NCBI GenBank assembly: GCA_945900705.1
Contig: CAMDKJ010000002.1
Span: forward strand, 1 to 46,180
Length of the DNA: 46,180 nt
Direction: 5' to 3'
Origin: Bifidobacterium breve
Lineage (GTDB): Bacteria > Actinomycetota > Actinomycetes > S36-B12
Shown here: positions 12,638 to 29,028 of the stretch, in pieces
Position numbering within the stretch: position 1 is the first letter of the stretch
Layout: every line of letters begins with the position of its first letter
Made by a program: the position numbers and the translations under genes
Notes under the pieces: generated by a model
Databases searched by the model: none
What the model saw: the letters and a program-made list of their open reading frames with translations, nothing else
Told to the model about the DNA's origin: nothing

Positions 12638-13435
12638 CTACGCGCTGGCTTCCACTATTTCAAGATGTCGTCCGGATAGTCGAGGCGTCTCCGACTCAGG
12701 TGTCCCCTTCGTTCGAACCACCATGACCGTCCTGTCCGCGCGGAACAGATCAGTTGAGTGCTCGAAGATCCTGCCCTGCGTATCGCGGGTAGTTCTACGC
12801 ACAGCGAGCAACGGCTGCCCGGTGGCTACTTCGAGAATAGAAGCTTCCTGCGGACTTGCGAGAACCACCTCAATTCTCTCGGTCGCCTCTGCCGGTCGAA
12901 TTGCGTATTCACGATCAAGCAGCTCATACAGGGAACCTGCGAGATCTCGTTCCGGTAGTCCATCCACCAAGTAGGCGGGGAGCATCGCCTGCTCCAGCGA
13001 GATCGGTGTACCGTCCGCGAAACGAATGCGCACCAGATCGACGATTAGATCCTCCGGATCAATGGCTAGTGCTACTGCAACATCCGGTCCGGCCGCTCGC
13101 ACAGCAAGGCTAACGATGCGCGAACCCGCGGTGAATCCCTGATCCCGGAGTAACTGCGGGACGTTGACGATGCGCGAGAGATCGCGTTCGACTTTGGTGG
13201 ATCCGACGAACACTCCGCCACCACGCCCGCCGATGCGGTTGACGTGGCCACTTCGCTCGAGCACTGCCAGTGCGGCGCGCACGCTGGTGCGACTCACACC
13301 TAGGTCAGCGGCAAGATCGCGCTCAGCACCAATGCGAGCTCCTCGCTGGAGACCCGTCTCGTTTATGAGAGCAAGGATGTCCTGTCGCACATTTTCGCCC
13401 GTGGGACCTAGTGCGGCTCCACTATCGGTGACCAA
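12638..13435 (-). CDS. GntR-family (HutC-like, UTRA domain) transcriptional regulator
   Basis: Winged-helix region (RIGAERDLAADLGVSRTSVRAALAVLERSGHV) plus a C-terminal effector domain of about 150 aa. It is the last gene of the BMC operon. Confidence 0.85.
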   Translation of the reverse strand: MVTDSGAALGPTGENVRQDILALINETGLQRGARIGAERDLAADLGVSRTSVRAALAVLERSGHVNRIGGRGGGVFVGSTKVERDLSRIVNVPQLLRDQGFTAGSRIVSLAVRAAGPDVAVALAIDPEDLIVDLVRIRFADGTPISLEQAMLPAYLVDGLPERDLAGSLYELLDREYAIRPAEATERIEVVLASPQEASILEVATGQPLLAVRRTTRDTQGRIFEHSTDLFRADRTVMVVRTKGTPESETPRLSGRHLEIVEASA

Positions 13436-13447
13436 TTTGCGAACGTC

Positions 13448-14233
13448 CTAATCCATCGCCTCGAGGGCGGACATGGACTCCGGAAGGACCTGCCCACCGT
13501 CGATAACTAGAGCCTGGCCAGTGATGTAAGCGGCCTCGTCGGTGGCGAAGAATAACGCCGCATTTCCAATGTCCGCAACCTCACCCAGCCGTCGCTGCGG
13601 AATAGACATCTCCATCGAGCGGCGGTAGTCCTCACCCATCTCCGCAAGGCCCTCCGTGGCTATATTTCCAGGTAGCACCGCGTTCACTGTGATTTTGTGG
13701 GCCGCCAATTCAATGGCCGCCGTCCTCATGAAACCGAGTTGGGCTGCCTTGCTGGCTCCATAGTGCGACCATCCGGGAAAGCCTGTGTACGGCCCGGTGA
13801 TTGATGAAGTAAGAATAACTCGGCCGCGGCCACTCTTGGACAACGCAGGAATACACGCTTGAACACTAAGAAGAGTTCCCTTAATATTTGTATCAAGTAC
13901 TAAGTCCATGTCACTTTCGGACATGTCGACGAGTTTGCTAGCGGGAAATATCCCGGCATTCGCGCACAGGACGTCGATGCCGCCATTATGTTCGACCGCC
14001 ATGGCAGCCATGGCAGCCGTTGACTCGCGATCGGTAACATCGCCAAGGAAATAAGTGACCCGCCCCGAGCCGAGTGAACTCAATTCCTGGGCAGTACTAG
14101 CCGCGTCCTTCTCATTGCGCCCGGTGATCAACACGTTGGCGCCCGCGCGGGCAAAGACTTGGGCGATACCCTTGCCGATACCTTTGGTGGCTCCGGTAAC
14201 GATCACTGATCGCCCTGCGATCGAGGTGAACAT
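13448..14233 (-). CDS. short-chain dehydrogenase/reductase (candidate aminoacetone reductase / 1-amino-2-propanol dehydrogenase)
   Basis: TGATKGIG cofactor motif and a Y-x-x-x-K catalytic motif (YGASKAA). The stop abuts the kinase gene. Its position matches the SDR of RMM loci. Confidence 0.85.
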
Positions 14234-15223
14234 TCAATCCTCCTCGAGGTTCTTAAAAGCAAAGGCCAAGAACTCCTCCGCCAGCCGACAACTGTCATAA
14301 GTGTACTGCGGTCCCATGGCTTGAGCAGTCTCGGTGGTCGAATGGGATCCGATCCAAGCCACAAGGAGCATACGACGGAACATGATGAAGGTGCGAAGCT
14401 CCTGCACCTCGGCAGCACTCAATGGGGCGACTGTCCGGTATCCGCGGACCCATGCATCCACGAGTTCCGGCACATACGGCTCGTGCTCGATGAAAGACAG
14501 CGACGATGCAAGGTCATACATGAACCACGAGAGGCCACAATCATCAAAATCAATCACCGTCACGTCAGGTCCATCAACCAAGAGGTTCGCCAAACGCATA
14601 TCCGCGTGGATGAGTCCCCAACGGTCCGCGGACTTCCCCCACAGTTGAAGACGCTCCCCAATCTTGTCCGCGCATCGGGAGAGAGTAGTTTTGGACTGCG
14701 CATCCATCCCGAGGCCGTCCTGCCACCTCCCCCAGTGTCCGTGCTCGCCGAGTGCGGTGTCGAAGTCCCATCTGAATCGAGTGAAGCCAGCAGGGCGAGA
14801 CCAACGGCGCGAATGGTCATGCAGTCGCGCAGTTATTGCCCCCACCTGCTCAAAGTCCTGAGCTAGGCGGTCCTGCGTCGGTTCCGCCCCAAGGGCCCAA
14901 CTAAAACGGCAGATGAAACGCTCATCGCCCACGCTCGGAAGGACAACGGCGATGCTATCTCCATCCGAGGTTTTCATGAGCGCCGGCGTCCGCACAATGC
15001 CTTCATTGCGCAGCGCGTTGATCCACATTAATTCGCTCTCAATCGACTCGCGCGTGTGGTAGTTCGTGCGATGTACCCTGAGCACGCTCCGTTCACTCGG
15101 CAGGTCTATTCGAAATGTCGCGTTCTCCGAGATATTCAACAGGGTTAGCGGAGTCGACTCGTCCAAGCCAAAAGCCGGAAGCGCACGGCGGGCATAGACC
15201 TCCCACCCCACAACTTCATCCAC
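14234..15223 (-). CDS. APH-fold phosphotransferase (candidate 1-amino-2-propanol kinase)
   Basis: Brenner-type motif HADMRLANLL and metal-binding IDFDD. GTG start with a GGGAG Shine-Dalgarno sequence. Synteny matches the amino-alcohol kinase of the M. smegmatis RMM locus. Confidence 0.8.
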   Translation of the reverse strand: MDEVVGWEVYARRALPAFGLDESTPLTLLNISENATFRIDLPSERSVLRVHRTNYHTRESIESELMWINALRNEGIVRTPALMKTSDGDSIAVVLPSVGDERFICRFSWALGAEPTQDRLAQDFEQVGAITARLHDHSRRWSRPAGFTRFRWDFDTALGEHGHWGRWQDGLGMDAQSKTTLSRCADKIGERLQLWGKSADRWGLIHADMRLANLLVDGPDVTVIDFDDCGLSWFMYDLASSLSFIEHEPYVPELVDAWVRGYRTVAPLSAAEVQELRTFIMFRRMLLVAWIGSHSTTETAQAMGPQYTYDSCRLAEEFLAFAFKNLEED

Positions 15224-15237
15224 CTTTGTCTCCCTCG

Positions 15238-15897
15238 CTACTGGTCTCTCCCCTGGATACCAAGGAGAGCAGATCCGATGGCCGCGCGCGCGCTGTTCAC
15301 CGCAACCGTTGAACCAGCAAGGTACACGCGACCTGCAGCGCCGATCATCTGCACGTCGACCAGAGTCAAGTCCGGTGCCGCCTTCTCGGCTTCATTCGCT
15401 GCGACAGCCGCGAATAGCGCCGGCGTCATCTCGAAGATAAGCAGGCTTTGGCCTGGCAGCAGCATCGACGCCTGCCGGTTTCGGTTAATTATCACCGCGT
15501 GCTGGTCGGTTATGTCATCGATGACATCGTGGTACAGAACGCGAGGGCGCAATTGGTCCTCCGCTCGCGCACCGATACCGGAGAGAATCGCTGCCCCGGC
15601 GGCCTCAACGTCCGCCAACTTATCCCCGTGCACCTCGAGCACCCCGAACTGGCGCTCGACGAACAAGATGCCGGGCTCGATCGCCGGCACCGCTCGTAGC
15701 GCAAGATCGGTGACACGCTCAATGGCCAGCCCGGGAGCCACCTCCACGATGAGCGCGTGCTGTCCTGCGTACGGCGGGTAGCCCCGTGCTCGCGTGGGGG
15801 TGCCGAGGAGTGCAGCGAACTGAGGCTGAAGGTCCTGGATCTGCAGGTAGACCCTGAGTTCAGGTGACGCCGTCTCGGGCAGCCCTGACACCTTCAC
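15238..15897 (-). CDS. BMC shell protein, tandem BMC domains (BMC-T)
   Basis: 219 aa with two BMC-like halves ([18 protein letters not shown]...[11 protein letters not shown], and [20 protein letters not shown]...AAGRVYLAG). Paralogous to 16804..17406. GTGA overlap with the BMC-H stop. Confidence 0.8.
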
Positions 15898-16175
15898 TCG
15901 GCAGTGACAATGAAGTTCTTGGATAGTTCTGCGTGCGGACGTGGGATGACGTGCACGCTGATCAACTCTCCAACTTGTCCCGCGGCTTCTGATCCAGCCT
16001 CGGTGGCAGCCTTGACTGCACCTACGTCACCTACGATCGTGACCGCAACTAGGCCGTCACCGACCTGCTCGCGGCTGATTATCACTACATTGGCAGCTTT
16101 GACCATAGCGTCCGCCGCAGCTAGCGCTGCGACGTAACCCTTGGTCTCAATCATGCCGATTGCGTTGTTCGACAT
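15894..16175 (-). CDS. BMC shell hexamer protein (BMC-H, PduA/CcmK-like)
   Basis: 93 aa with the canonical motif [30 protein letters not shown]...[13 protein letters not shown]. Confidence 0.95.
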
Positions 16176-16220
16176 TCTTTTTCCCTTCGTAGTGCCGGGC
16201 GGTGGGCCCGGCGTGCTGGA

Positions 16221-16469
16221 TTACTGCGAACTCTCGTCAATCGATCCGATAATGAGAGCGTCAATGGGTGGAGCCACTCCTTCTAACCACGCGGACGCAA
16301 CGGAACCCGTAGCCACTAGGACCAATTCACCAATACCCGAGCCGAGGACATCGAAGGCAATTAGGCGTGTGCCTGCCGGTTCGACCTCTACTTCCAGGAA
16401 TGCGCCGGTGGGAATGCCCGAAATCTTCTTCGTTGACCAAACTTTGCCAACAACCTTTGCCTTCAGCAT
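16221..16469 (-). CDS. BMC vertex pentamer protein (BMC-P, EutN/CcmL-like)
   Basis: 82 aa, MLKAKVVGKVWSTKK...LVLVATGSVA...DALIIGSIDE, which is the typical EutN/CcmL pattern. Confidence 0.9.
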   Translation of the reverse strand: MLKAKVVGKVWSTKKISGIPTGAFLEVEVEPAGTRLIAFDVLGSGIGELVLVATGSVASAWLEGVAPPIDALIIGSIDESSQ

Positions 16470-16477
16470 GACTTACC

Positions 16478-16804
16478 TCATTCCTCGATTCGGATGATAT
16501 CGATGCCACTTATCTTGGCCCGCTCGCGAGCCAGCGGCGTTACCACTACACGACGGGTAATCCAGATGCTCGAACCATCAACTTCCGCAGCGCGCACCTG
16601 ACGCTCAGTTAGAGCACCGCGGGTGACGTGATGCTTCACTGCGACTGCTGCCGTGGTTTTCGCAGGGGAGCCCGCCTCCAGCTTGATAGAACCGTTCTGC
16701 ATTGCGGCACTTATCTCCTCCGCTATTACCTCCTTTAGAACATCGCGTACGACCTCGCGGATCACCTCGCGCAGGAGCTCACTGGACACCTGATTGGCCA
16801 CCAT
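16478..16804 (-). CDS. BMC-locus protein of unknown function with an N-terminal encapsulation-peptide-like helix
   Basis: 108 aa. Residues about 7-33 (SSELLREVIREVVRDVLKEVIAEEISA) form an amphipathic helix resembling PduD/PduP targeting peptides. An Ala/Pro linker follows, then a domain of about 55 aa. The ATG shares one base with the upstream stop (TAATG). Confidence 0.65.
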   Translation of the reverse strand: MVANQVSSELLREVIREVVRDVLKEVIAEEISAAMQNGSIKLEAGSPAKTTAAVAVKHHVTRGALTERQVRAAEVDGSSIWITRRVVVTPLARERAKISGIDIIRIEE

Positions 16805-17406
16805 TAGCCGACCGCCTTCATCGCGCTCTCTGCCGCACTAGCGGCGGCCCTGACTTCGGATTCGAGACCGGTCAGGTACACCCGCCCGGTGGCTCCGACC
16901 ATTCGATAATCGACCACCTTTATCCTCGACGCTTTCTCAGCCTCGTTGGTCGCAAGGATCGCGTAACTAGCTGGCTGCATTTCCATGACGTACATTGACT
17001 CACCGGGGATCGCCATCGAGCCGATCTTGTTCCGATTTATCAAGAAGGCATGCTGCCGATCGAGTTTGGAAACGACACGCGAAGCCAGCACTTGCGGCTT
17101 GATCGCAGTCGCAGCACTAACTTGAAGATGCTCGAGTACAGCATCTGCGGCACTGCGCACCTCACTGGTTGGGCCATGCAGCTCTAAATACCCGAACTGG
17201 CGTTCAACCAAGAGAATTCCTGCACCGACCCCAGAGTGTTTGAGGGCAATATCAGTGATGGGCTCGATATCTAGTCCTGGTGCGACCTCGATGATTTGCG
17301 CCGCGACATCGGCGCGGGGCAGCGCCCCACGCACCCACGTGCCCAAGTAGCACATGGTCTGCGGTTGCAGCCTGTCTAGGAAAATGAAGGAACGCAGTTC
17401 AGCCAC
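16804..17406 (-). CDS. BMC shell protein, tandem BMC domains (BMC-T)
   Basis: 200 aa with two BMC halves (EVAPGLDIEPITDIALKH...ERQFGYLELHG, and MEMQPASYAILATNEAEKAS...ATGRVYLTG). Paralog of 15238..15897. Confidence 0.8.
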   Translation of the reverse strand: MAELRSFIFLDRLQPQTMCYLGTWVRGALPRADVAAQIIEVAPGLDIEPITDIALKHSGVGAGILLVERQFGYLELHGPTSEVRSAADAVLEHLQVSAATAIKPQVLASRVVSKLDRQHAFLINRNKIGSMAIPGESMYVMEMQPASYAILATNEAEKASRIKVVDYRMVGATGRVYLTGLESEVRAAASAAESAMKAVG

Positions 17407-17408: not shown

Positions 17409-18974
17409 TCAGCCCTTAATGATCTGTCGTAGTTCGTCGATAACAAGCCTTCGGATCTCCTCGCGGAGGTCATCGGTCCCGGAGAATTCGACAGGATTCG
17501 ACGGCTGCGGTATGACCGGGGCACCCTCTAGATTGGACGCAATTGGGTACGCCGGCACGCTACCCTCTGGCACCGACCATGAGTTGAGATCAGTGAAGTC
17601 CGGCATGAGTACCGACTGATTCGAATTGTAGGCAATCAGCGTCTGATTGATGAAGTGCTTGGGTTGCAAGTTTTCGCCCAGCGATGACCTGCCGAAGAAC
17701 CCGGTACCTATCGTCATGCTTGGCGCCAGAGCCGTCTGGATACCGGCACTCCCTAAACTATTGCCGACATTTACAGCCACCCGCAAGACCGGGAGTGCGG
17801 ACGCATAATCCATTGTCACTCGCGCATCTTGACTGTGAATCGCTGCGCTATGACCACGCCCCGAGTTGCGTAATACGGCGCGAGCAGCATCTATGCCCCG
17901 AGCAGCGCTCGAAACCGTGACCATCGCAAGGACCGGGCACAGTTTCTCGTGCGCCAGGGGTTCCTCTGGGACGATCAGGTCAATCGGTGCTACGAGGATC
18001 AGCGTCCCCTTTGGAACTTTGAGGTCACAGGCAGCCGCGATCTCCGCTGCGCTCTTGCCAACCCAGGCAGTGTCGAAATTACCGGCCGGGAAAATCAGGT
18101 CACGCACCACTTCAACCTGTTCTGTGCTCAGCAGACAAGCACCCGCCTTGGTAAGTTCCTTTGTGAAGCTAGTTAAAATGCTGTCCTCGACGATTAGCAC
18201 CGACTCACTGGTGCAAAGTATTGAATTGTCAAAGGACTTGCTCGCCACGATGCTCTGCGCAGCCGCAGCAAGATCCGCCGACTTCTCGACAAACACCGGG
18301 ACATTGCTGGGGCCTACGCCAAAGGCTGGATTACCACTTCGATAAGCGGCGCGAACCATAGGCGCACCACCTGTGGCAACAATTACATCCACACGTTCAT
18401 CTGTCATCAGTGCATTGATCAATGGGATTGAGGGCTGTTCCACAACCTGAATGACACCATCAGGTGCGCCTTCGGCGACCGCTGCATCCCGCATGGCGTA
18501 GGCGGCACTTGTGCACACACCCTTGGCGAAAGGATGCGGGGAAATGATAATGGTGTTGCGCGTTAGTAGGGCAAGCATGATCTTGAAGTAGACGGTGGCC
18601 ACGGGGTTAGTGGATGGAGTGAGCGCAAAGATTACGCCAGCCGGTCGGGGCACTTCGACAATCTTGTCGCCAGACAAGATCGTTGGGGTGACGTAGTCAT
18701 GGGACTCGTACGTGTTCCAGATTCCTACGGAGCAGGCCACGTTCTTCAAGACTTTATGCTCCACCACACCATAACCTGTTTCCTGCACCGCCAGCTCAGC
18801 AAACTCCCGAGCGTGATTCTCACCCGCAATCGCAGCCGCATGCGCGATGCGTCGAACCGAATCAATGTCGTAAGTTGCAAATGTTCGCGCCGCCCAAGTG
18901 GCCCGCTCCACCATGGCTCTTCCCCGCGGCACCCCCGCCGGTTCCAGCGGCATTTCAACCAGCGCTTGGGTCAT
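17409..18974 (-). CDS. CoA-acylating aldehyde dehydrogenase (PduP/EutE-like) with a C-terminal encapsulation peptide
   Basis: 521 aa. The catalytic Cys sits in FDNSILCTSESVLIV. The C-terminal tail is EFSGTDDLREEIRRLVIDELRQIIKG, an amphipathic helix. The start overlaps the upstream stop (ATGA). Confidence 0.9.
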   Translation of the reverse strand: MTQALVEMPLEPAGVPRGRAMVERATWAARTFATYDIDSVRRIAHAAAIAGENHAREFAELAVQETGYGVVEHKVLKNVACSVGIWNTYESHDYVTPTILSGDKIVEVPRPAGVIFALTPSTNPVATVYFKIMLALLTRNTIIISPHPFAKGVCTSAAYAMRDAAVAEGAPDGVIQVVEQPSIPLINALMTDERVDVIVATGGAPMVRAAYRSGNPAFGVGPSNVPVFVEKSADLAAAAQSIVASKSFDNSILCTSESVLIVEDSILTSFTKELTKAGACLLSTEQVEVVRDLIFPAGNFDTAWVGKSAAEIAAACDLKVPKGTLILVAPIDLIVPEEPLAHEKLCPVLAMVTVSSAARGIDAARAVLRNSGRGHSAAIHSQDARVTMDYASALPVLRVAVNVGNSLGSAGIQTALAPSMTIGTGFFGRSSLGENLQPKHFINQTLIAYNSNQSVLMPDFTDLNSWSVPEGSVPAYPIASNLEGAPVIPQPSNPVEFSGTDDLREEIRRLVIDELRQIIKG

Positions 18975-20281
18975 CGTGGCCCCCGCAAAGATCTGACTTC
19001 AGCCCAGGCCCGACAAATGCTCACCTCGGTGCGGTCCAGCAACTCCTCCGCTATCTCTGGCTTAAGCAGCAAACCGGGCTTGTACTGCAGAACCCGGGGA
19101 TCAAGGGTGGAGAAGATCGCCCAAACCCCATTTTCATACAAATGACGCATCACAAATTTTGCGCCCTGCGGATCGTTGAACTCCAAGCCGATGACCAAGC
19201 CGTTCTGCCGGATCCCGATCAACCAGTCGGGGTAATCCGCCTGGATGCGGCGTAAGCCTTGCCCGATGAAATCGGACAGATAATGAACCATGGAGCGGGT
19301 CTCCGGGCGCGAGCAGATTTCCAGCGTCTTAATCGCTGCCACACACCCGAGCTCCGCACCGCCGAAAGTGGAAATGTGCCCAAAGCCGTCCTGTGTCAAC
19401 CACCCGGCCGCGTGCTCCGCAACGACCACGCAGGCAATCGGGTATAGCCCACCTGACAGCCCCTTGCCACTTACCATGATGTCGGGCGAGATTCCCTCTT
19501 TGCTGATGGCCCACAACTCACCAGTTCGCATGAGCCCTGTCTGCACCTCATCGGCGATGTAGAGGGCGTCATGTCGCTCGCACAATTCCTTGACCTTGCG
19601 CAGGTAACCCGGAGCAGGCAGTGGGAATCCAAAGGTGGCCGGGATCGTTTCCATGATCACCGCTGCTACATCTCGATTGCGCAGCACATTTTCCATCGCT
19701 TCGAGGTCATTGAATGGGACGTTCGGGAAATCCTCCGGATTGTCCGAAAGGAAGAGTTTAGAGAAACGTTCGTCACCGGTACCAACCGCAAGTCCGGTGT
19801 GACCGTGATAGGCCTTTGTAATCGACACAACTTTGCGTTTCTGGGTGGCGTGCCGGGCGGTTTTGATGGCAATGTCGATTGCCTCACCGCCGCCGGACCC
19901 GTAGATGACTTTCGTCAGTCCCGCTGGAGCCGAAGACACCAAGGCCTCCGCGAGCGCGGTCCGGGCGAGCGCCGGGAAGTGGTGGTTGCCTATGTCGAAG
20001 TGCTGCATTGCGGTGGTGATCGCCTGAACGACTTCGGGGTTTCGGTGGCCTAGGTTGTAAGTGCCACCATTGAGGTGGGTGTCAATAAGCCTTTTCCCGG
20101 ACATATCGTAGATGAAGTACTCCTCGCGCCGGTCAATCACAAGAGGGACACCGGAGTCGATCCAAAACTGCGTCTTGCCCGGGTTCCAATAGGCCTTGGC
20201 TTTGTCTAGGACCTCCGCTTTGGACGCAAAGGAGAAAACCCCGTAGTCATAAGGAACTTCGACACTTGCCTGCTCCGGCAT
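18971..20281 (-). CDS. class-III aminotransferase-fold PLP enzyme (candidate 1-amino-2-propanol O-phosphate phospho-lyase)
   Basis: Motifs ADEVQTGLMRTGELWA and the PLP-lysine region MVSGKGLSGG. The start is taken at ATG 20281 (MPEQASVEV...). The longer ORF reaching 20512 would overlap the divergent permease start. Confidence 0.8.
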   Translation of the reverse strand: MPEQASVEVPYDYGVFSFASKAEVLDKAKAYWNPGKTQFWIDSGVPLVIDRREEYFIYDMSGKRLIDTHLNGGTYNLGHRNPEVVQAITTAMQHFDIGNHHFPALARTALAEALVSSAPAGLTKVIYGSGGGEAIDIAIKTARHATQKRKVVSITKAYHGHTGLAVGTGDERFSKLFLSDNPEDFPNVPFNDLEAMENVLRNRDVAAVIMETIPATFGFPLPAPGYLRKVKELCERHDALYIADEVQTGLMRTGELWAISKEGISPDIMVSGKGLSGGLYPIACVVVAEHAAGWLTQDGFGHISTFGGAELGCVAAIKTLEICSRPETRSMVHYLSDFIGQGLRRIQADYPDWLIGIRQNGLVIGLEFNDPQGAKFVMRHLYENGVWAIFSTLDPRVLQYKPGLLLKPEIAEELLDRTEVSICRAWAEVRSLRGPR

Positions 20282-20301
20282 AGTCGCACCATACCAATTA
20301 G

Positions 20302-20327
20302 CAGACCATTTAGCAAGTATTGGTCTG
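20302..20327. promoter_or_regulatory. candidate operator (inverted repeat CAGACCA-N12-TGGTCTG)
   Basis: 7-bp perfect inverted arms at 20302-20308 and 20321-20327, interleaved with ACCAAT (20293-20298) / ATTGGT (20319-20324). It lies 21-46 nt upstream of the first gene of the BMC operon, in the 215-bp divergent control region. Confidence 0.3.
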
Positions 20328-20496: not shown

Positions 20497-22083
20497 ATGA
20501 GCCAATACGCACCTGATGCCAACCCTGGCGACCACCAGGTATCCAAGGCCGACCAGGCGCGCCTCAAGGCCGGCGCGGTCGGCCTGATCGGGGTGCTTTT
20601 CATGGCGGTCGCCAACGCGGCGCCCATCACGGCCATGAGTTTCAACGTGCCAATTGCCGTCGGCTACGGCAACGGCATCGGCGTGTCCGGCGGCTACCTC
20701 TTTGCCACCATCGTCCTGACCATCTTCACCATCGGATTCGTGGCCATGGCCAAATACATAACCACCGCCGGGGCTTTCTACGGTTTCATCTCCCACGGCC
20801 TCGGGCAGGTCATGGGAATGGCTTCCGGGTTGATCGCAGCTGTGGCCTACATCATCTTCGAAGCTTCGCTAATTGGCGGTTTCGCCTACTTCGCCTCAGA
20901 GTACGTACTCAAGCCCGCCGGTCTAAACCTAAACTGGATGGTCCTTGCGGTCATCGGAATCATTATTATCGCGATCCTCACCTACTATTCGATCACCCTC
21001 TCGGCGAGCATCCTCGGTATCACCTTGGTATGTGAGATCGTCCTGCTACTAGCACTTGGTGTCTCCGTCTTGTTCAAGGGCGGCCCAGACGGCTTCATGT
21101 TCGCCGAGACAGTGCCTCCCCAGAACGCCTTCAACAGTCTGAGCGAGGGAGCCTTCGGTACCGGAGTGGCCGCAGGTGTTGCAGCAATCGGTCTCTTCTT
21201 CGCGTTTTGGTCTTGGGTTGGCTACGAAACCACGGCGGTTTACGGCGAGGAGTCGAAAGACCCAAAGCGCAATGTTCCCCGCGCGACACTGATCGCAGTC
21301 GTCGGTCTCGGCCTCTTCTACACCTTCATGTCGTGGCTAGTCGTGGTCGGTAACGGCGCTGCTCAGTCCGTAGAGGTTTCCGCAGGCGCGGCACCGGTCG
21401 ACCTATGGCTCGGTCTGGTAGGACAAAACCTCGGTGGTTTCATCGAGGTGGTGTACAAAGTCTTGCTGGTAATCGGCTCGTTCGCCTGCGCCTTAGCTTT
21501 TCACAACGCTGCCTCACGGTACATCTTCGCGCTGGGGCGAGAGAGCGCCGCACCTGCGGTGCGTAGGACACTCGGTTCAGTCTCCACCAAGCATGGATCA
21601 CCAGCCATTGCCTCGTTCGTGCAGAGCGCTATCACGCTGGTGCTTTGTGTGCTCTTCCTCTTGTTCACGAATGTCTACGTGGACGGCGAGGCGGTCCCAG
21701 AACTGATTCCGTATGTAAATGTGTACGGCCTGCTGGCTCTAATCGGTACCGCCATGGTTCTGATTGTGCAGACGATTACCTCGTTTGCCGTAATCGGGTA
21801 CTTCTGGGTTAAGAAGGTACACCGGGGCAATGTGATCACCACACTTATTTGTCCCATCCTTGGTGCTCTTGGCATGCTCTACGCCCTGTCACTACTTTGG
21901 TCTAACCGGCAGTTCGCTGCCGGCCTCGCGGCAGACAGTCTCGTGTTCGCCTTGATGCCCGTGTACGTAATCGGTCTTTTCGTAATCGGTGCCGGCTACG
22001 CCTTGTACGTCAAGTCGAAGAGGCCGGACATCTACGACGAGATCGGGCGCACCACAATGGACGAGGCGCACGAGCGCGTGTAA
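20497..22083 (+). CDS. APC-superfamily amino acid/amine permease
   Basis: 528 aa with about 12-13 TM helices and a GGAG Shine-Dalgarno sequence 6 nt upstream. Divergent from the BMC operon, as in RMM loci. Confidence 0.85.
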   Translation: MSQYAPDANPGDHQVSKADQARLKAGAVGLIGVLFMAVANAAPITAMSFNVPIAVGYGNGIGVSGGYLFATIVLTIFTIGFVAMAKYITTAGAFYGFISHGLGQVMGMASGLIAAVAYIIFEASLIGGFAYFASEYVLKPAGLNLNWMVLAVIGIIIIAILTYYSITLSASILGITLVCEIVLLLALGVSVLFKGGPDGFMFAETVPPQNAFNSLSEGAFGTGVAAGVAAIGLFFAFWSWVGYETTAVYGEESKDPKRNVPRATLIAVVGLGLFYTFMSWLVVVGNGAAQSVEVSAGAAPVDLWLGLVGQNLGGFIEVVYKVLLVIGSFACALAFHNAASRYIFALGRESAAPAVRRTLGSVSTKHGSPAIASFVQSAITLVLCVLFLLFTNVYVDGEAVPELIPYVNVYGLLALIGTAMVLIVQTITSFAVIGYFWVKKVHRGNVITTLICPILGALGMLYALSLLWSNRQFAAGLAADSLVFALMPVYVIGLFVIGAGYALYVKSKRPDIYDEIGRTTMDEAHERV

Positions 22084-22150: not shown

Positions 22151-23170
22151 ATGAGTGCCTCGGCCGATACGCTGACATGGGCACCCGACCCTGACGCAGA
22201 CCCAGCGACTTACACCTACACCTTCGGCGGATCCGCGCCGGTGGCCCACTTGCGCCCAGGGCAACGGATCTCAACTTGGACGATGGACTGTTTCGGGGGC
22301 CGGGTGCGCAGCTCCGCGGACCTTCCATCTTTGGTCTGTGACCCTCGGTACCTCAACCCACAATCAGGGCCCTTCTTCATCGATGGTGCCCAGCCCGGTG
22401 ACACCCTAGCGGTGCACTTTGTCTCCATCGAGCCGCGTGAGGCGTGGGGGGTGAGCTCTACAGTGCCGTTCTTCGGCGCACTGACGTCCACCAATTACAC
22501 CGCGACCTTGCAACCAGCCCTCCTTGAGCGCACTTGGTTTTATGAATTGGACCTCATCGATCGGCGAGTGCGCTACGCGGCCGTGGACACGCCTTTTACC
22601 GCAGCACTGCCACTGGATCCCATGCACGGGACTGTCGGTGTCGCCCCCGCGCTCGGCGAAGTCCGTTCGTCCCTCACCCCTGGTGATTGGGGCGGCAACA
22701 TGGACACTCCTGAGATGCGCGCGGGCGTAACTTGCTACCTAGGGGTCAATGTTGAGGGTGCACTCTTTAGCCTCGGAGACGGGCATGCGCGCCAAGGTGA
22801 GGGAGAGGCGTGCGGGGTTGCGGTGGAGTGCGCTATGGACACCGAGGTTATTGTCGATGTGCTCGCGGGCCACACCTGCTCATGGCCCCGCTTGGAGAGC
22901 GACGACTACATAATGACCACCGGGTCGACGCGTCCGTTGGAGGATGCCTTTCGCATTGCGCATCAACAAATGGTCTTATGGGTGGCCGAGCTGACCGGTC
23001 AGAGTGTGATCGATTCTTATCAACTGGTATCACAAGCAGCTCTGACGCCAATTGCGAATGTGGTCGACACGAATTACACGGTGGTGTGTAAGTTCCCGAA
23101 ATCCCTACTCAAAGGGGTTAGTGCCATGGACGGGATGCACTCAAGGATGCGCGATAAGGCGCGCTCATGA
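22151..23170 (+). CDS. acetamidase/formamidase-family amidohydrolase (FmdA/AmdA)
   Basis: 339 aa with motifs GNMDTPEMRAG, GDGHARQGEGEACG and CAMD that are characteristic of the family. Confidence 0.8.
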   Translation: MSASADTLTWAPDPDADPATYTYTFGGSAPVAHLRPGQRISTWTMDCFGGRVRSSADLPSLVCDPRYLNPQSGPFFIDGAQPGDTLAVHFVSIEPREAWGVSSTVPFFGALTSTNYTATLQPALLERTWFYELDLIDRRVRYAAVDTPFTAALPLDPMHGTVGVAPALGEVRSSLTPGDWGGNMDTPEMRAGVTCYLGVNVEGALFSLGDGHARQGEGEACGVAVECAMDTEVIVDVLAGHTCSWPRLESDDYIMTTGSTRPLEDAFRIAHQQMVLWVAELTGQSVIDSYQLVSQAALTPIANVVDTNYTVVCKFPKSLLKGVSAMDGMHSRMRDKARS

Positions 23171-23598
23171 GCCGGGTAAGCCGGTACGAAATTGATCTCG
23201 ACCTCGCATTGCTAATGGTCTCTGCCGCCCGTTCTGCCGCCGAGCAATTGGACGCTTGCGTCTCCATCGCGGTCGTCGATGCAGGCGGCCAGTTGATTGC
23301 CTTCGCTCGAATGGATGGAGCTGAGATCGCAGGTCCGGTTCTCGCTCGAGACAAGGCTTACACGGCTGTGGCCCACCGGACCGACACCGGTTCGCTGAGC
23401 GATTTAACCGCTCCCGGTGGGCAACTCGCTGGTATGTACGCGGCCGATGGGGGCCGTTACATCACTTTCGCAGGTGGTATTCCGCTCTGGGACGGCAGCA
23501 GAGTGAGCGGCGGCGTCGGCGTGAGCGGCGGCACCGCTGAACAGGACGAGCAGGTGGCGCAAGTGGCGGCACAGACTTTCGATGAGGCGGCACGGTGA
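23167..23598 (+). CDS. GlcG/HbpS-like DUF336 protein (PduO C-terminal-domain type)
   Basis: 143 aa with the motif GGVGVSGGTAEQDEQVA. ATGA overlap upstream and GTGA overlap downstream. Confidence 0.8.
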   Translation: MSRVSRYEIDLDLALLMVSAARSAAEQLDACVSIAVVDAGGQLIAFARMDGAEIAGPVLARDKAYTAVAHRTDTGSLSDLTAPGGQLAGMYAADGGRYITFAGGIPLWDGSRVSGGVGVSGGTAEQDEQVAQVAAQTFDEAAR

Positions 23599-25826
23599 CC
23601 ATAGGTCGCTTTCGGTTCATGGATCGGCAGCGAGTGAACCTCGACGGATTCGCGGAGCCCGATCCCGCACTCGGCATGATCGCATTCAACTCACCGAATG
23701 ACCCGGAGCCCTCCTTAATTGTGGAAAATGGTCGGGTCATCGAAATGGACTCAAAACTAGAATTCGAGTTCGACATCATCGATCACTTCATCGCCCGGCA
23801 TGGTCTGGATCTTGAGGTTGCTGCGGAAGCCATGACTATGGACCCGTTGCACTTCGCACACATGTTGGTCGATCCTCGTGCCCCACGCTCGGAGATAATT
23901 CGCCTAGCAGCAGGCATGACGCCCGCCAAGTTGGCGCAGTGTCTGACCCTCCTGCGGCCCGCCGAACTCGTGATGGCGATGACTAAGTGCCGGGCCCGGC
24001 GCACCCCCAGCAACCAGGCCCACGTGACCAATCGCTCGGATGATCCGCTGCTCCTCGCAGCGGACGCTGCGACCGCTGCAGCGTTTGGATTCCGCGAAAT
24101 CGAAACCACCGTGCCCGTTCTCGAAGACGCACCATCGAATGCAATAGCCGTCAGCATTGGTGCCGCGGTTGGCTCCCCCGGCGTACTCGTGCAGTGCTCC
24201 GTGGAGGAATCTGTTGAGCTTGAGATGGGAATGCGCGGCCTGGTCTCATACGCTGAGACCGTCTCCCTGTACGGCACCGAACAGATCTTCATCGACGGCG
24301 ACGACACCCCATGGTCGAAGGCCTTCTTGACCTCTGCCTACGCGAGCCGGGGCATCAAGATGCGGGTGACTTCAGGGGGTGGCGCGGAGGCTTTGATGGG
24401 AGCTGCGGAGGGCTGCTCCATGTTCTACCTCGAATCACGATGCGTGGCCCTTGCTCGCGCTGTTGGCGCCCAAGGAGTGCAAAATGGCGGGATCGATTCT
24501 GCTTCTGTTGCCGGATCTGTTCCCGGTGGCGTCAAAAGCCTGATGGCGGAAAACCTAATGGTGATGGTGCGAAACCTCGAAGCTTGCACGGGCAATGACG
24601 CCCTGATGAGCGAGTCCGACGTGCGGCGCACGTCGCGGACCCACCCGATCTTCATCGCCGGCTCGGACTTCATCTGCAGTGGTTTTGGATCTATCCAGCG
24701 GTACGACAATATGTTTGGCCCTAGTCAGTGGAACTCCGAGGACATTGACGACTACCTAGCTATGCAGCGGGACTGGGGTGTCGATGGCGGACTGCGTACC
24801 GCTCGCGAAACCGATGTCGAGGAACTTCGTCGAACGGCTGTTGAAGTGGTCAGCGACGTGTACCGATTGCTCGGACTAGCTAGTTTCAGCGCCGAATGGC
24901 AGGAGCAGGCTGTGGATGCTGCTGGTTCCAAGGATGTTCCGGCCGCCGATCTGATGACGCCGCTGCAGGCATCAAGGCTTATCCGAGATACGAATATTAC
25001 AATGCTCGACGTCGTGCGCGCACTCGACGAGTCGGGTCATGAGACCATCGCCCAGCGCCTTCTCGATCTGCTCAAAGCGCGCCTAAATGGCGATTATTTG
25101 CAGACTGCGGCGATCTTCGATGAGGACATGTCCGTTCTCTCCCTCGTTACTGATCCAAATGACTATGCAGGTCCGGGCACCGGTTACGTCCCCACCCCGT
25201 TGCGGCAGTTGCAGATCGATTCGATCCGACAGGTGCGATCTGTGGCCGACCTGCGTAGTGACCAGGCGCAGGCACGATCTACTCGACTCACCGAAGGTCT
25301 GGTAGCCGAGCGAGGCATCGGATCAAGGGACGTGGTGATCGGCGTTTCCCCGGCTACAGCACGCGATATCTGGCGAACGCTCGGTGGCCTGATGGTGACC
25401 GAAGCGCTAGACGAACTGCTCGCGGGGCTCGAGGAGGAGGGTTGCCAGGGGCGCATAGTCCGGTTCCACGACACCGTCGATCTTGGTCTGATCGGCCTGA
25501 AGGCAGCGCGCCTTGCCGGATCGGGGATCGGCATCGGCCTACAGGCCAAGGGGACGGCGCTCATCCATCGACATGACCTACCCCCACTGGGGAATCTGGA
25601 GCTCTACAGTGTGGCGCCAAGCCTCGGGCGCGCGGAATATCGCGCCCTCGGGCTCAATGCGGGACGGCACGCCAAGGGTGCGAACCCGGAGCCGGCGCGC
25701 AACCCCTACTCGGACGAAGCTATTGAGGCGCGCTACCACACTTCCGTTGTCTCGCTGATGGCTGTCGAGCGGGAGTGCAGCGACTTAACGGCCCCGCCCA
25801 TCACACTGCACTTGGAGCGGTCATGA
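23595..25826 (+). CDS. pduCD: coenzyme-B12-dependent diol/glycerol dehydratase, fused large (alpha) and medium (beta) subunits
   Basis: Residues 1 to about 553 are collinear with PduC (SPNDP.PS, IDHFIARHG, RRTPSNQAHVTN, YGTEQIFIDGDDTPWSKAFL, YDNMF, NDYAGPGTGY). Residues from about 564 are collinear with PduD from its residue of about 47 (LTEG...VVIGVSPA..., GSGIGIGLQAKGTALIH, LPPLGNLELY). Confidence 0.9.
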   Translation: MTIGRFRFMDRQRVNLDGFAEPDPALGMIAFNSPNDPEPSLIVENGRVIEMDSKLEFEFDIIDHFIARHGLDLEVAAEAMTMDPLHFAHMLVDPRAPRSEIIRLAAGMTPAKLAQCLTLLRPAELVMAMTKCRARRTPSNQAHVTNRSDDPLLLAADAATAAAFGFREIETTVPVLEDAPSNAIAVSIGAAVGSPGVLVQCSVEESVELEMGMRGLVSYAETVSLYGTEQIFIDGDDTPWSKAFLTSAYASRGIKMRVTSGGGAEALMGAAEGCSMFYLESRCVALARAVGAQGVQNGGIDSASVAGSVPGGVKSLMAENLMVMVRNLEACTGNDALMSESDVRRTSRTHPIFIAGSDFICSGFGSIQRYDNMFGPSQWNSEDIDDYLAMQRDWGVDGGLRTARETDVEELRRTAVEVVSDVYRLLGLASFSAEWQEQAVDAAGSKDVPAADLMTPLQASRLIRDTNITMLDVVRALDESGHETIAQRLLDLLKARLNGDYLQTAAIFDEDMSVLSLVTDPNDYAGPGTGYVPTPLRQLQIDSIRQVRSVADLRSDQAQARSTRLTEGLVAERGIGSRDVVIGVSPATARDIWRTLGGLMVTEALDELLAGLEEEGCQGRIVRFHDTVDLGLIGLKAARLAGSGIGIGLQAKGTALIHRHDLPPLGNLELYSVAPSLGRAEYRALGLNAGRHAKGANPEPARNPYSDEAIEARYHTSVVSLMAVERECSDLTAPPITLHLERS

Positions 25827-26179: not shown

Positions 26180-27840
26180 CTCTGATCGCCGGAGTAGACA
26201 TTGGAAATTCAACAACCGAGGTGGTCATTGCCGACACCAGTTCTTTCCCGCCACAACCCTGCGCGTGGGATCGCGTGCCAACCCATGGCTTAAAGGGATC
26301 ACCCGAGGCAACGCGTCGCGCGGCTCGTGTAGTCCAGCGGCTCGCTCGGCGATCTGGCTTCATCCCCGATCTCGTGGCAATGACCGCGCAGCAACCCGTC
26401 CTGACCGGTGTGCATTCCCTGCCACGTGTTCAGCGCGCACCTGGCCGCCTAGTTATCTTGGACGACCATCCGATGACTCCAGCCGGCAGCGGCGTAGCGT
26501 GCGGTAGACCCATCGCCCAACGAGCTGAACCGCCACGGGGAATCGCGGTCATCCTGGTTGCTAGTGATCCGCTGTCCTACCGCGCTACCGCTGACACCAT
26601 AAACCGCTGGCGATCCAACGGAATTGATTTGCGCGGCGCTTTACTCGCGGGTGACGAGGCCCGCCTGGTACACGCGCGCATCGGTGCCGATCTCGTGATA
26701 GTCGACCGGGTAAATTCCGAGCAGGCCTTGCGTTGCGACCTGATAGCGCTCGAAGTCAATGATTACGTCATTGGGCCGATCGCTGATCCCCTCTACCTAG
26801 TCGCGCACCTTGATTTGCTGCCGGATGAGATCTCCGACGCCACCATTGTTGCTGGCGCCGTGCGCGGGAGTCGATGTGCTGTAATAGGTCGCTTGCCGAT
26901 CGCGGTCAGCCGCGAACTACATCCGGCCGGATTCCTAACCTTCACCGACGGATTTGTTGCCGGTTTGGACGAGGCCCATGACCAGCTTGCGGCCAGACCG
27001 GTTGGCAGCGCCGCGCACCTTGTCTTCGCGAACGGTGCTCACCAAGATGTCTCAGATGCTTGGGTTGTTGATATTCAGTCCCTCGGGTCACCCGCAGCGC
27101 TGCGGCGGGCTTCTACTACTCCCGAACTCGCGGTCTCCACCCTCGCCACTGTCGGTGATGCAACAGTGGCCGAATTGGCTTTTCAGGAGGTTAATTCGTT
27201 GCCCATATTGATAGTTGGCGATGAGGCTCGGGCTGCAGCATTAGGAGCACGTACCACCCCTGGTTGCGCAGAGAACACGGTCGTACTTGACCTCGGCGGC
27301 GGAACGATAGACATCATCACTGACGGCTCGGTCACCGGTGCCGGGTCGGGGGATCTGCTCAGCGCGTGCATCGGGTCACTTGCCGGCATTTCGTTGGGCG
27401 CTGCGGAATGGGTTAAACAAGGGCCTGCTTTTCGTATAGATACCCCCTCTATCGCCTCCCGCGAAACCCAGACCCAGGATTTTTTGCCAACCGAGGTTCC
27501 CGGGTCACTCGTGGGCTGGCTGGCAGTTAATGGGCCCACCGGCGCCTTGCCTTTTTCTCGCAACCTAACCCTTGGCGATTGGCGCCAGCTCCGCCTAGCC
27601 GCGAAGCGTGCGGTCATCGAGGACAATGTGCGGCGTATCAGCGGTGGACTTCAGATCGATAGTCCCACCGCGGTGGCGGTGGGTGGTCCGGTTGGCGATC
27701 GGGAGATTCTCGAGTGTCTGTCTTCAGCCCTCCCGGCCTTGGCCATCGGCCGTGGTGATGTCGCTGGAACTCTGGGACATAGATTCGCCGTCGCCTACGG
27801 GTTGGTACTGCTCGCAGCCCAGGAAATGCAAAGAACGTGA
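26176..27840 (+). CDS. pduG: diol dehydratase reactivase large subunit (PduG/DdrA-like)
   Basis: ASKHA motifs IAGVDIGNSTTEV and VVLDLGGGTIDI. 554 aa. The GTG start overlaps the upstream stop (GTGA). Confidence 0.85.
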   Translation: MTLIAGVDIGNSTTEVVIADTSSFPPQPCAWDRVPTHGLKGSPEATRRAARVVQRLARRSGFIPDLVAMTAQQPVLTGVHSLPRVQRAPGRLVILDDHPMTPAGSGVACGRPIAQRAEPPRGIAVILVASDPLSYRATADTINRWRSNGIDLRGALLAGDEARLVHARIGADLVIVDRVNSEQALRCDLIALEVNDYVIGPIADPLYLVAHLDLLPDEISDATIVAGAVRGSRCAVIGRLPIAVSRELHPAGFLTFTDGFVAGLDEAHDQLAARPVGSAAHLVFANGAHQDVSDAWVVDIQSLGSPAALRRASTTPELAVSTLATVGDATVAELAFQEVNSLPILIVGDEARAAALGARTTPGCAENTVVLDLGGGTIDIITDGSVTGAGSGDLLSACIGSLAGISLGAAEWVKQGPAFRIDTPSIASRETQTQDFLPTEVPGSLVGWLAVNGPTGALPFSRNLTLGDWRQLRLAAKRAVIEDNVRRISGGLQIDSPTAVAVGGPVGDREILECLSSALPALAIGRGDVAGTLGHRFAVAYGLVLLAAQEMQRT

Positions 27841-27981
27841 GCTGCAATAATGTTGAAAAGCTTCATATACAGACTCCTGCGACATAACATGGGAGTACCC
27901 TCATAAACCACTAGGAATAAAACTCACGGCAATTAAGTTGTCGTACCAACAATGTTAATCCACTACAACATGAGGTCACCA

Positions 27982-29028
27982 ATGGATGTCATCGCATATG
28001 CCACTTCGGCACCTAAGGCCCCGCTGGAGCCATTCGTGTTTAGTCAACGCGAAGTCGGCCCGCACGACATTTTGATCGACATCAAATTCGCCGGTATCTG
28101 CCACTCCGATATCCATCAAGCCCGCGAGGACTGGGGATCGGCCATTTTCCCGATGGTGCCCGGGCATGAAATCGCAGGTGTGGTGAGCGCGGTCGGCAGC
28201 GCAGTGACGAAGTTCAAGGTTGGCGATCACGCCGGGGTCGGGTGCCTCGTTGATACCTGTCGCGTTTGCGCGAATTGCCTGGCTGGGTTGGAGCAATACT
28301 GCCTAGGTCACATGGTGTTGACCTATAACGGCGTTGAGGCTGACATGCAGACACCCACCTATGGCGGCTACGCCACCCACATCGTCATCGATGAGGGCTA
28401 CGCCCTGACCATCCCGCCAGGCTTGCCCCTCGACATCGCCGCTCCCCTCCTGTGCGCGGGAATCACCTTGTATTCACCACTTCGCTATTGGCAGGCCGGC
28501 CCCGGTACCAAGGTAGGCATCATGGGGCTGGGCGGCCTCGGGCACATGGGGGTGAAGATCGCACATGCAATGGGCGCTGAAGTCACGTTGATTAGTCACT
28601 CGCCGGGCAAGGAGGAAGACGCTAGGCGCCTTGGAGCAGACAATTTCATTCTGTCGAGCGACACAAAAGCGATGAAAGCCGCCCGCAATTCCCTCGATTT
28701 GGTTATCAATACCGTTTCGGCAGATATCGAGCTCGACCACTACCTGGCCCTGATCAAGTTGCAGGGCACCATGTGTGTTGTCGGGCTCCCGGAGAAGCCG
28801 CTGTCCGTGAGTGCATTCGCCCTCACCGGCCAACGGAGATCCCTAGCCGGGTCAAATATCGGTGGCATCGCCGAAACTCAGGAGAAGCTGAACTTCTGCG
28901 CCGAGCATGGCTTCGGGAGCGATGTCGAAGTCATTGCGGTCCAACAGGTTAACGAGGCCTGGGAGCGAGTGCTAAGGAGTGATGTTCGCTACCGGTTCGT
29001 GATCGATACCGAGTCACTCAACGCTTGA
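27982..29028 (+). CDS. Zn-dependent medium-chain alcohol dehydrogenase (cinnamyl-ADH / AdhC / YahK type)
   Basis: Catalytic Zn motifs GICHSD and GHEIAG, a structural Zn cluster (CRVCANCLAGLEQYC), and GLGGLGH. The start is set at ATG 27982 (GAGG 6 nt upstream). The longest ORF begins at 27952. Confidence 0.85.
   Translation: MDVIAYATSAPKAPLEPFVFSQREVGPHDILIDIKFAGICHSDIHQAREDWGSAIFPMVPGHEIAGVVSAVGSAVTKFKVGDHAGVGCLVDTCRVCANCLAGLEQYCLGHMVLTYNGVEADMQTPTYGGYATHIVIDEGYALTIPPGLPLDIAAPLLCAGITLYSPLRYWQAGPGTKVGIMGLGGLGHMGVKIAHAMGAEVTLISHSPGKEEDARRLGADNFILSSDTKAMKAARNSLDLVINTVSADIELDHYLALIKLQGTMCVVGLPEKPLSVSAFALTGQRRSLAGSNIGGIAETQEKLNFCAEHGFGSDVEVIAVQQVNEAWERVLRSDVRYRFVIDTESLNA

Follow-up and report, generated by a model that had tools for sequence, protein, structure and literature searches.

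In Mycobacterium smegmatis, aminoacetone and 1-amino-2-propanol are reportedly degraded in a metabolosome known as the Rhodococcus/Mycobacterium microcompartment (RMM), and the chemistry of this pathway is said to have been worked out by Mallette and Kimber. A locus of this kind, joined to an operon for an adenosylcobalamin (AdoCbl)-dependent dehydratase, is found in the 46,180-nt stretch of DNA examined here (hereafter the window), which comes from contig CAMDKJ010000002.1 of assembly GCA_945900705.1, filed under Bifidobacterium breve, and has a GC content of about 59 %. It is proposed, with slightly better than even confidence, that the region encodes an RMM1/AAUM-type metabolosome for aminoacetone and 1-amino-2-propanol, accompanied by a cytosolic, pathway-coupled dehydratase that acts on an amine-bearing substrate.

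Loci of the RMM type have been classified twice, with different use of the same names. In the 2021 catalogue of Sutter et al., RMM1/AAUM1 loci, of which that of M. smegmatis mc2 155 is one, encode a shell made of two BMC-T(dp) proteins and one each of BMC-H and BMC-P (AAUM, aminoacetone utilisation microcompartment; BMC, bacterial microcompartment). Axen et al. (2014; PMC4207490) had earlier told an RMM2/PDU2 type from RMM1 by its diol-dehydratase genes, which lie on the opposite strand, and had assigned to it the genomes of M. gilvum PYR-GCK and Spyr1 and of M. chubuense NBB4. The idea that “the BMC may be bifunctional” was put forward in the same paper. In the 2021 catalogue, RMM2 instead denotes a type with another gene order that is mostly proteobacterial (Proteobacteria, Marinimicrobia), and the association of a dehydratase with the RMM is treated as unimportant.

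The minus-strand operon of the window and the permease gene that diverges from it have the gene content of an RMM1/AAUM1 core. The shell set consists of two different BMC-T(dp) proteins with a single BMC-H and a single BMC-P, and the class-III-aminotransferase-fold enzyme, acylating aldehyde dehydrogenase (AldDH), APH-fold kinase, short-chain dehydrogenase/reductase (SDR), APC permease and GntR regulator are all six orthologous to the M. smegmatis set. The M. smegmatis locus, retrieved via MSM0275 for this comparison, has a permease that diverges from Aminotran_3, Aldedh, BMC-T, a 173-aa open reading frame (ORF), EutN, BMC-H, BMC-T, APH, SDR and GntR genes, and the order in the window is identical. 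The same order with a complete shell set is present in 44 of the 45 full-length related loci. An earlier note on this DNA, made from the sequence before any database search, had assigned the operon to the RMM type, and this assignment is confirmed by the gene order and by strong matches to solved M. smegmatis structures. The shell ORFs likewise proved to be what the note had taken them for: BMC-H matches the Pfam BMC model and BMC-P the EutN_CcmL model, while both BMC-T proteins match the CcmP model and solved MSM structures. Both BMC-T proteins are predicted to be of the double-stacking type because of these CcmP-model matches and those to 5SUH and 5L39, although the Pfam scan gave no match for the 219-aa one (15238–15897).

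Neither M. smegmatis RMM1 nor the window has a phosphotransacylase (PTAC) or a dedicated alcohol dehydrogenase. The two loci differ beside the permease, which in M. smegmatis is without the adjoining amidase, DUF336, dehydratase and reactivase genes, all four of which are present in the window. They also differ in host, that of the window being an uncultured freshwater actinobacterium. By published description, the RMM2/PDU2 loci of Mycobacterium have the permease-to-regulator gene set and the opposite-strand dehydratase, as in the window, and the hydrolases of RMM1 are absent from both. The window has the features of RMM2/PDU2 in the sense of Axen et al., as its RMM genes are accompanied by diol-dehydratase genes that are encoded on the other strand, and the suspicion in the earlier note that the combination might be catalogued was correct: it was published in 2014 and is not new. 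It does not belong to RMM2/AAUM2 in the sense of the 2021 catalogue, since its order is that of RMM1 and its relatives are Actinomycetota; in that catalogue it would be RMM1/AAUM1.

The conservation of the dehydratase linkage was assessed in 80 loci fetched from species-level genomes around relatives of the lyase gene (the best 80 of 391), onto which all window proteins were mapped. Counts are taken from the 45 Actinomycetota loci with full 10-kb flanks, and the dehydratase module was scored as present if it lay within 10 kb. Among the best 80 relatives, the closest are uncultured Actinomycetota, many of them freshwater metagenome-assembled genomes (MAGs); the closest matches are F1-60-MAGs171 (95 %) and an “acSTL” MAG (93 %). 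Many others are Nanopelagicales, Kineosporiaceae and Sporichthyaceae, and cultured carriers are Nocardioides islandensis, N. agariphilus, N. bigeumensis and Longivirga aurantiaca. Kineosporia isolates have close dehydratase homologs. The relatives L001 and L083 are 94–95 % identical.

The dehydratase module is present in 40 of the 45 loci and absent from 5, and it occurs in three arrangements. It is upstream-divergent, after the permease as in the window, in 23 loci; convergent after GntR in 12, including those of the three Nocardioides species; and co-directional after GntR in 5. In a reciprocal scan of metagenome contigs with the dehydratase as query, nearly every contig with enough flank has RMM genes. 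Moreover, four metagenome contigs (L124, L155, L156 and L158) carry the regulator, SDR, kinase, lyase and permease genes along with the dehydratase, but the part of them that was examined contains neither shell genes nor an AldDH gene; Pfam scans of the ORFs flanking L124 and L156 gave nothing useful, and ORF choice is unreliable in these high-GC contigs. Because the linkage survives rearrangement, functional coupling of the dehydratase to the aminopropanol pathway is well supported, and the shell-less contigs, if complete, place this coupling with the amino-alcohol enzymes rather than with the shell. The low importance given to the association in 2021 is at odds with these counts, by which most loci in a large group of environmental Actinomycetota have the linkage and few are without it. 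The module is nonetheless accessory, because M. smegmatis has the core pathway without it. It corresponds to a lineage-wide, functionally coupled accessory module in the layout that Axen et al. called RMM2/PDU2.

The enzyme encoded by this module has the large, medium and small subunit domains of the AdoCbl-dependent diol/glycerol dehydratase family, and passes the cut-off of the NCBIfam model “propanediol/glycerol family dehydratase large subunit” (829 vs 788 bits). Its large-subunit part aligns without gaps to the Klebsiella pneumoniae glycerol dehydratase through residue 549, so that its numbering is that of the K. oxytoca diol dehydratase. The Ca2+ ligands Q141, E170, E221, Q296 and S362, the catalytic H143 and D335, and also F374 are all kept. 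In contrast, residues 299–306 read GIDSASVA instead of AVSCIGMT, and residues 335–340 read DALMSE instead of DQTFSH. The resulting pocket changes are S301D, Q336A, T337L, F338M and H340E. All 45 linked loci, the most distant of them at 66 % identity, and the 120 best database homologs have D301, A336, L337, M338 and E340 without exception, so the S301 and Q336 that go with 1,2-propanediol and glycerol specificity on the C3 side are replaced throughout.

In the K. oxytoca enzyme, the C3 hydroxyl of glycerol points at Ser301 (PMC7674605). Alanine mutants at Ser301 and Gln336 raise the Km for 1,2-propanediol 6- to 40-fold, from 0.06 mM to 0.38 mM (S301A), 0.57 mM (Q336A) and 2.4 mM (double mutant), and lower kcat/Km 8- to about 130-fold (PMC7674605). 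Since S301D and Q336A fall on these C3-side residues, the window enzyme would have an enlarged, acidic pocket where the C3 substituent sits. A library-wide search indicates that D301 marks a broader clade with several sub-signatures, distinct both from the canonical S301/Q336 enzymes and from an S301/A336 group. The contexts of the other D301 subclades retrieved are mostly amine-related. One of these (L164, 8001–15147), a D301/T336 subclade, has a small subunit fused to a Peptidase_S58 domain, followed by a decarboxylase dependent on pyridoxal phosphate (PLP), a reactivase and a separate medium subunit, and may belong to a different amine-linked B12 pathway. Another D301 dehydratase (L166) lies near an Aminotran_3 gene, while a third (L081), in a short MarR/SnoaL context, is uninformative. 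The sole context retrieved for an S301/A336 fused enzyme (L168) is without amine or BMC genes.

One further D301 subclade, with the motif DARPTE (L163, 1–12510), lies between a polyamine-type ABC transporter and convergent EutN, BMC-T and AldDH-like genes that resemble those of the RMM, and an FmdA_AmdA gene is also close by. Here a BMC is associated with a dehydratase for a second time, in another organisation.

The dehydratase also lacks recognisable signals for entry into the shell. Its beta part begins about 12 residues after the end of the alpha part and aligns with the K. oxytoca beta subunit only from residue 47, which means that the encapsulation peptide (EP) and linker of PduD are absent. 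The gamma subunit is without the N-terminal extension of PduE and aligns in the NCBIfam PduE-like model only from position 58; four Mycobacterium PduE proteins are likewise without the EP extension (Aussignargues et al. 2015; PMC4594438). A hydrophobic moment scan found no EP-like terminal or linker segment in the dehydratase, reactivase, DUF336 protein or amidase, the values for the dehydratase being 0.28–0.41 compared to 0.66 for the 108-aa protein and 0.53 for AldDH. From these features, the dehydratase is more likely cytosolic. That the linked dehydratases form a clade of their own, in which the C3 pocket is enlarged and acidic and an encapsulation signal is missing, suggests that this textbook radical enzyme has a further, new class of substrates.

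The proposed pathway is assigned by homology with M. smegmatis. A HutC-type repressor would control the divergent region, and the permease would import the amine. The SDR is predicted to interconvert aminoacetone and (S)-1-amino-2-propanol, which the APH-fold kinase would phosphorylate; the class-III PLP enzyme would then eliminate phosphate and ammonia to yield propionaldehyde. An EP-tagged acylating AldDH would convert the propionaldehyde to propionyl-CoA inside a shell of BMC-H, BMC-P and two BMC-T proteins, together with the EP-tagged 108-aa protein. The dehydratase would work outside this shell, in the cytosol, on a vicinal diol or amino alcohol with a cationic amino group, such as 3-amino-1,2-propanediol or an aminopropanol isomer, and its product would feed into the aminoacetone route or run alongside it. 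From 3-amino-1,2-propanediol, the canonical regiochemistry would yield 3-aminopropanal; if hydrogen were instead abstracted at the secondary carbon, as with 2,3-butanediol, the product would be aminoacetone, with which the pathway starts. The amidase would probably serve to release the amine from an N-acylated compound that the permease has imported.

A more general proposal, put forward tentatively and at well below even confidence, is that the D301/A336 enzymes are a new AdoCbl-eliminase specificity class for amine-bearing vicinal diols or amino alcohols, in which Asp301 pairs with the ammonium group, and that they have co-evolved with the aminoacetone/aminopropanol pathway as its non-encapsulated feeder. 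If this is true, the annotation “diol dehydratase” is wrong for thousands of actinobacterial genes, and the AAUM pathway has a second, so far unrecognised natural substrate. The D301 clade also suggests that the compartment has a further input.

Several points weigh against the cytosolic, amine-directed role proposed for the dehydratase. The substrate assignment draws on two pocket positions and on gene neighbourhoods, and Asp301 could serve otherwise, for example in resistance to suicide inactivation. No natural source of an amino-diol is established, and the locus has no obvious enzyme for 3-aminopropanal. A protein without a recognisable EP may still be encapsulated, by piggy-backing or through other determinants, and full-length PduC can be targeted to the shell without an EP (PMC4594438). 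In addition, the shell-less variants are metagenome contigs, so that the missing genes could lie beyond the stretch examined; M. smegmatis runs the core pathway without the module; and the comparison with the M. gilvum and M. chubuense loci was made by published description.

The earlier note had favoured a bifunctional metabolosome, as raised by Axen et al., in which an ordinary 1,2-propanediol or glycerol dehydratase shares the shell and both sources of propionaldehyde feed one encapsulated AldDH. The family-level score of the large subunit, the complete catalytic and Ca2+ residues and the conserved linkage to a shell locus all agree with it, both routes could give a C3 aldehyde for one AldDH, and PduC is able to enter shells without an EP of its own. 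It is not supported here, because no dehydratase subunit has an EP, the pocket is disfavoured for 1,2-propanediol by changes at the very positions where alanine mutants impair the K. oxytoca enzyme, and the same dehydratase clade is linked to kinase, SDR and lyase genes on contigs whose examined stretches contain neither a shell gene nor an AldDH gene. A PDU-like cycle would also call for a PTAC or a conserved alcohol dehydrogenase, whereas the only Zn-dependent alcohol dehydrogenase (Zn-ADH) is strain-specific. This explanation is considered unlikely. The dehydratase operon might instead be an independent catabolic unit that happens to lie beside the RMM, as the 2021 catalogue implies. The five loci without the module and its absence from M. 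smegmatis fit such an incidental neighbourhood, but it is very improbable in view of the 40 linked species-level loci in three arrangements, the near-constant return of RMM genes in the reverse scan, a gene spacing that suggests one transcript with the core permease, and a pocket signature specific to the linked clade.

It is also conceivable, though on balance it is judged a little less probable than the bifunctional metabolosome, that the B12 enzyme is a deaminating eliminase. It would abstract hydrogen from C1 of a 1-amino-2-propanol isomer, and migration of the hydroxyl would give a carbinolamine that breaks down to propionaldehyde and ammonia, thereby providing a bypass for the enantiomer that the kinase rejects. 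Tight linkage with the aminopropanol genes, shell-less forms included, is what this would lead one to expect, as are the acidic, enlarged pocket and the sharing of a permease and a HutC-type regulator. However, an amine in place of O1 would occupy the O1 site, while Asp301 would lie towards C3 of the substrate, and the Ca2+ ligands that bind two hydroxyls are all retained. Furthermore, the shell would lose its purpose if propionaldehyde arose in the cytosol, and the dehydratase has no EP.

The features of the locus are listed in Table 1. Gene identities are based on the ORF map, Pfam and NCBIfam family scans and PDB sequence matches, and these bear out the gene list of the earlier note and its coordinates for every listed gene.

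Table 1. Features of the RMM locus, the dehydratase operon and the adjoining gene, with positions in the window
Feature	Position	Strand	Evidence
GntR/HutC-family regulator, helix-turn-helix + UTRA	12638..13435	-	Pfam UTRA 1e-37, GntR 6e-12; NCBIfam HutC/PhnR-like
SDR, ortholog of M. smegmatis (S)-1-amino-2-propanol dehydrogenase	13448..14233	-	PDB 6CI8/6CI9 1e-101; adh_short 2e-52
APH-fold kinase, ortholog of M. smegmatis (S)-1-amino-2-propanol kinase	14234..15223	-	PDB 6EF6 3e-87; APH 2e-26
BMC-T, double-stacking, CcmP-like, 219 aa, ortholog of MSM0271	15238..15897	-	NCBIfam CcmP 1e-57; PDB 5SUH 1e-95
BMC-H hexamer shell protein	15894..16175	-	Pfam BMC 7e-26; EutM-like 7e-29
BMC-P pentamer vertex protein	16221..16469	-	Pfam EutN_CcmL 2e-18
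Conserved RMM protein, 108 aa, probable cargo/scaffold	16478..16804	-	Synteny with M. smegmatis 173-aa ORF; alignment of homologs
BMC-T, double-stacking, 200 aa, ortholog of MSM0275	16804..17406	-	PDB 5L39 3e-91; CcmP model 4e-60
CoA-acylating aldehyde dehydrogenase, 521 aa	17409..18974	-	Pfam Aldedh; NCBIfam AdhE N-half 2e-129, EutE-type 5e-110
Class-III-aminotransferase-fold PLP enzyme, presumed 1-amino-2-propanol-O-phosphate phospho-lyase	18971..20281	-	Aminotran_3 4e-74
Divergent control region, 215 bp	20282..20496	.	Sequence; candidate HutC-type operator inside
APC-family permease, core RMM gene	20497..22083	+	AA_permease_2 1e-26; same position in M. smegmatis locus (L082)
FmdA/AmdA-family amidase, 339 aa	22151..23170	+	Pfam 5e-22; PDB 5UBU “putative acetamidase/formamidase” 7e-63
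DUF336 / HbpS-like (GlcG/PduO-C-like) protein	23167..23598	+	Pfam 2e-34
Fused large + medium subunit, AdoCbl-dependent diol/glycerol-type dehydratase, D301/A336 subfamily	23595..25826	+	Dehydratase_LU 9e-230, MU 3e-23
Dehydratase small (gamma) subunit, 118 aa	25823..26179	+	Dehydratase_SU 4e-37
Reactivase alpha-like ATPase, 554 aa	26176..27840	+	Pfam DDR 2e-33, DDR_swiveling 5e-15; PduG model 1e-46, below cut-off
Zn-dependent Ahr-like aldehyde reductase, neighbour outside conserved locus	27952..29028	+	ADH_N + ADH_zinc_N; Ahr model 4e-86

The ten minus-strand genes, of which the GntR/HutC regulator is the last conserved-core gene in all related loci, are spaced by 12, 0, 14, −4, 45, 8, −1, 2 and −4 nt as read from their coordinates, which agrees with the close packing described before (gaps of at most 45 nt or overlaps of 1–4 nt). 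On the plus strand, the permease gene is followed after 67 nt by the amidase gene, and the DUF336, fused dehydratase, small subunit and reactivase genes then follow via four 4-nt overlaps. This spacing suggests that the genes from permease to reactivase form one transcript with the core RMM permease. The plus-strand set of permease, amidase, DUF336, dehydratase and reactivase stands as first described, with the length of the small subunit corrected from 134 to 118 aa: it most likely begins at the ATG at 25823, which is preceded by GGAG and shares the sequence ATGA with the stop codon of the gene before it. The lyase gene begins with the ATG at 20281. The mechanical 513-aa ORF 18971–20512, which has a GTG start, is an over-extension and was rejected as the lyase gene, since it would run into the start of the permease gene and since the conserved part of the protein starts at 20281. 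The intergenic region is therefore 20282–20496, or the 215 bp first reported.

Within this divergent region, the inverted repeat AGACCA-N12-TGGTCT at 20303–20326, 22–45 nt upstream of the lyase ATG, is a candidate for a shared HutC-type operator. TGGTCT or AGACCA is found in 47 of 63 equivalent intergenic regions of the related loci (L001–L080), at 3.7 per kb compared to 0.50 per kb elsewhere in the same loci (about 7.5-fold), and is often adjoined by GGTATG repeats. In a scan of 12300–29300 for sigma-70 promoters and terminators, shuffled controls gave more matches than the DNA itself, and the divergent region gave no match; the scan is uninformative for an actinobacterium.

Two products of the core operon have distinctive termini, and we read them as encapsulation-tagged cargo. 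The best NCBIfam models for AldDH are acylating types, and their alignments stop near residue 453 of 521. The remaining C-terminal extension of about 68 residues consists of a Pro-rich linker and an amphipathic helix, DDLREEIRRLVIDELRQIIKG, which is a candidate EP. The 108-aa protein has an N-terminal amphipathic, EP-like helix (LLREVIREVVRDVLKEV) with the highest terminal hydrophobic moment in the locus, then a linker and a conserved C-terminal motif of about 45 aa, which in an alignment of homologs from many loci reads ...AVTER..V....G..L.LG.RAVLTPLARDRAR.LGV.I. These two termini have the top hydrophobic moments among the segments outside folded domains. PDB and family searches with the 108-aa protein gave marginal matches only; those to Trigger_N (6e-4) and eut_hyp (8.5e-4) were rejected, and its identity as a probable cargo or scaffold protein comes from synteny and alignment. 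The related loci examined, that of M. smegmatis included, have a homolog in the equivalent place.

The small RMM protein exists in two forms, a short one of about 108 aa and a long one of about 140–180 aa. The long form, seen in the 173-aa protein of M. smegmatis (L082, 10612–11133), has an extra middle domain (…DADLDAFV.RLL.LFENP..R..L..GRLRF.L…) that is missing from the 108-aa protein of the window.

The phospho-lyase role of the class-III PLP enzyme is presumed because of the M. smegmatis pathway model. A PDB search found no close solved structure for it, the best matches being transaminases. In Sphaerisporangium viridialbum (L075), lyase, AldDH, kinase, SDR and regulator genes occur together without shell genes and without a dehydratase.

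The propanediol utilization (PDU) system of Salmonella and Klebsiella, with PduCDE and PduGH, has a homologous AdoCbl dehydratase; identity of the window enzyme to plasmid-borne Klebsiella and Citrobacter pduCD is about 46 % by tblastn. The catalytic and Ca2+ residues are shared, and a homolog of the reactivase alpha subunit is present. In Pdu proteins, the DUF336 domain is the C-terminus of PduO. Unlike the PDU enzyme, the window dehydratase has fused alpha and beta subunits, has no EP on beta or gamma, is accompanied by no reactivase beta subunit, and differs at the five pocket positions given above. EPs on PduD and/or PduE belong to the PDU type, and none is found here. Family scans of the window proteins found no PduL, PduQ, PduP, PduS, PduO-N or Pdu-type shell paralogs, and equally no PTAC, corrinoid adenosyltransferase, reactivase beta or Fe-dependent alcohol dehydrogenase. 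Naturally fused alpha-beta glycerol dehydratases, which like the window enzyme have a separate gamma subunit, are mentioned for M. smegmatis and Mesorhizobium loti (Liu et al. 2010, as cited in PMC7674605). Fused homologs sampled from other clades are S301/A336 enzymes (“SISCVALVDAIASHS”), whereas the window enzyme belongs to the D301 clade. A search of a plasmid collection with the dehydratase found no relative linked to an RMM; the homologs returned, all of less than 60 % identity, were enterobacterial pdu/dha genes and fused forms from rhizobia and haloarchaea.

The accessory genes of the plus-strand operon do not all follow the dehydratase. The amidase is found in 32 of the 45 full loci and stays by the permease when the dehydratase is elsewhere; it scores far below the formamidase equivalog cut-off (56 vs 500 bits). 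DUF336 is found in 21 of the 45, and directly precedes the dehydratase in the permease-downstream arrangement and in L062. The coupling of amidase and DUF336 that the earlier note had singled out does not hold as a unit, as the amidase travels with the permease and DUF336 only with some dehydratase arrangements. The Pfam families of these two proteins are not named in the supplements of Axen et al. (2014) and Sutter et al. (2021). The reactivase is 85 % identical in L001 and otherwise only 31–43 % identical across loci, compared to 66–80 % for the large + medium dehydratase subunit in the same loci. No gene for a reactivase beta subunit (DdrB/PduH-like) follows the alpha gene in the window or in related loci.

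The Zn-ADH gene, which the earlier note had listed as lying beyond the reactivase, is by comparison of gene order a strain-specific 1.1-kb insertion at the end of the operon. It is absent from L001 and L083, where the reactivase is followed after 58 nt by an arginine deiminase (ADI)-like gene, and from all other loci. Being missing in the nearest relatives, it was rejected as the metabolosome alcohol dehydrogenase.

The flanking genes of the window include ABC transporters, a LacI regulator, a MocA oxidoreductase (conserved only in L001), the ADI-like enzyme and a thiamine pyrophosphate (TPP) enzyme with acetolactate decarboxylase, among others, and none is part of the system. A 749-aa ORF at 2214–4463 (+) has no Pfam match at 1e-5, and the ORFs 1329–1955, 4400–4999 and 8235–9023 are likewise without assignment. 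On the minus strand at 29018–32839, the ADI/amidinotransferase-like gene, the acetolactate-synthase-like TPP enzyme gene and an alpha-acetolactate decarboxylase gene form an unrelated, acetoin-type group, the first two genes of which are conserved in L001.

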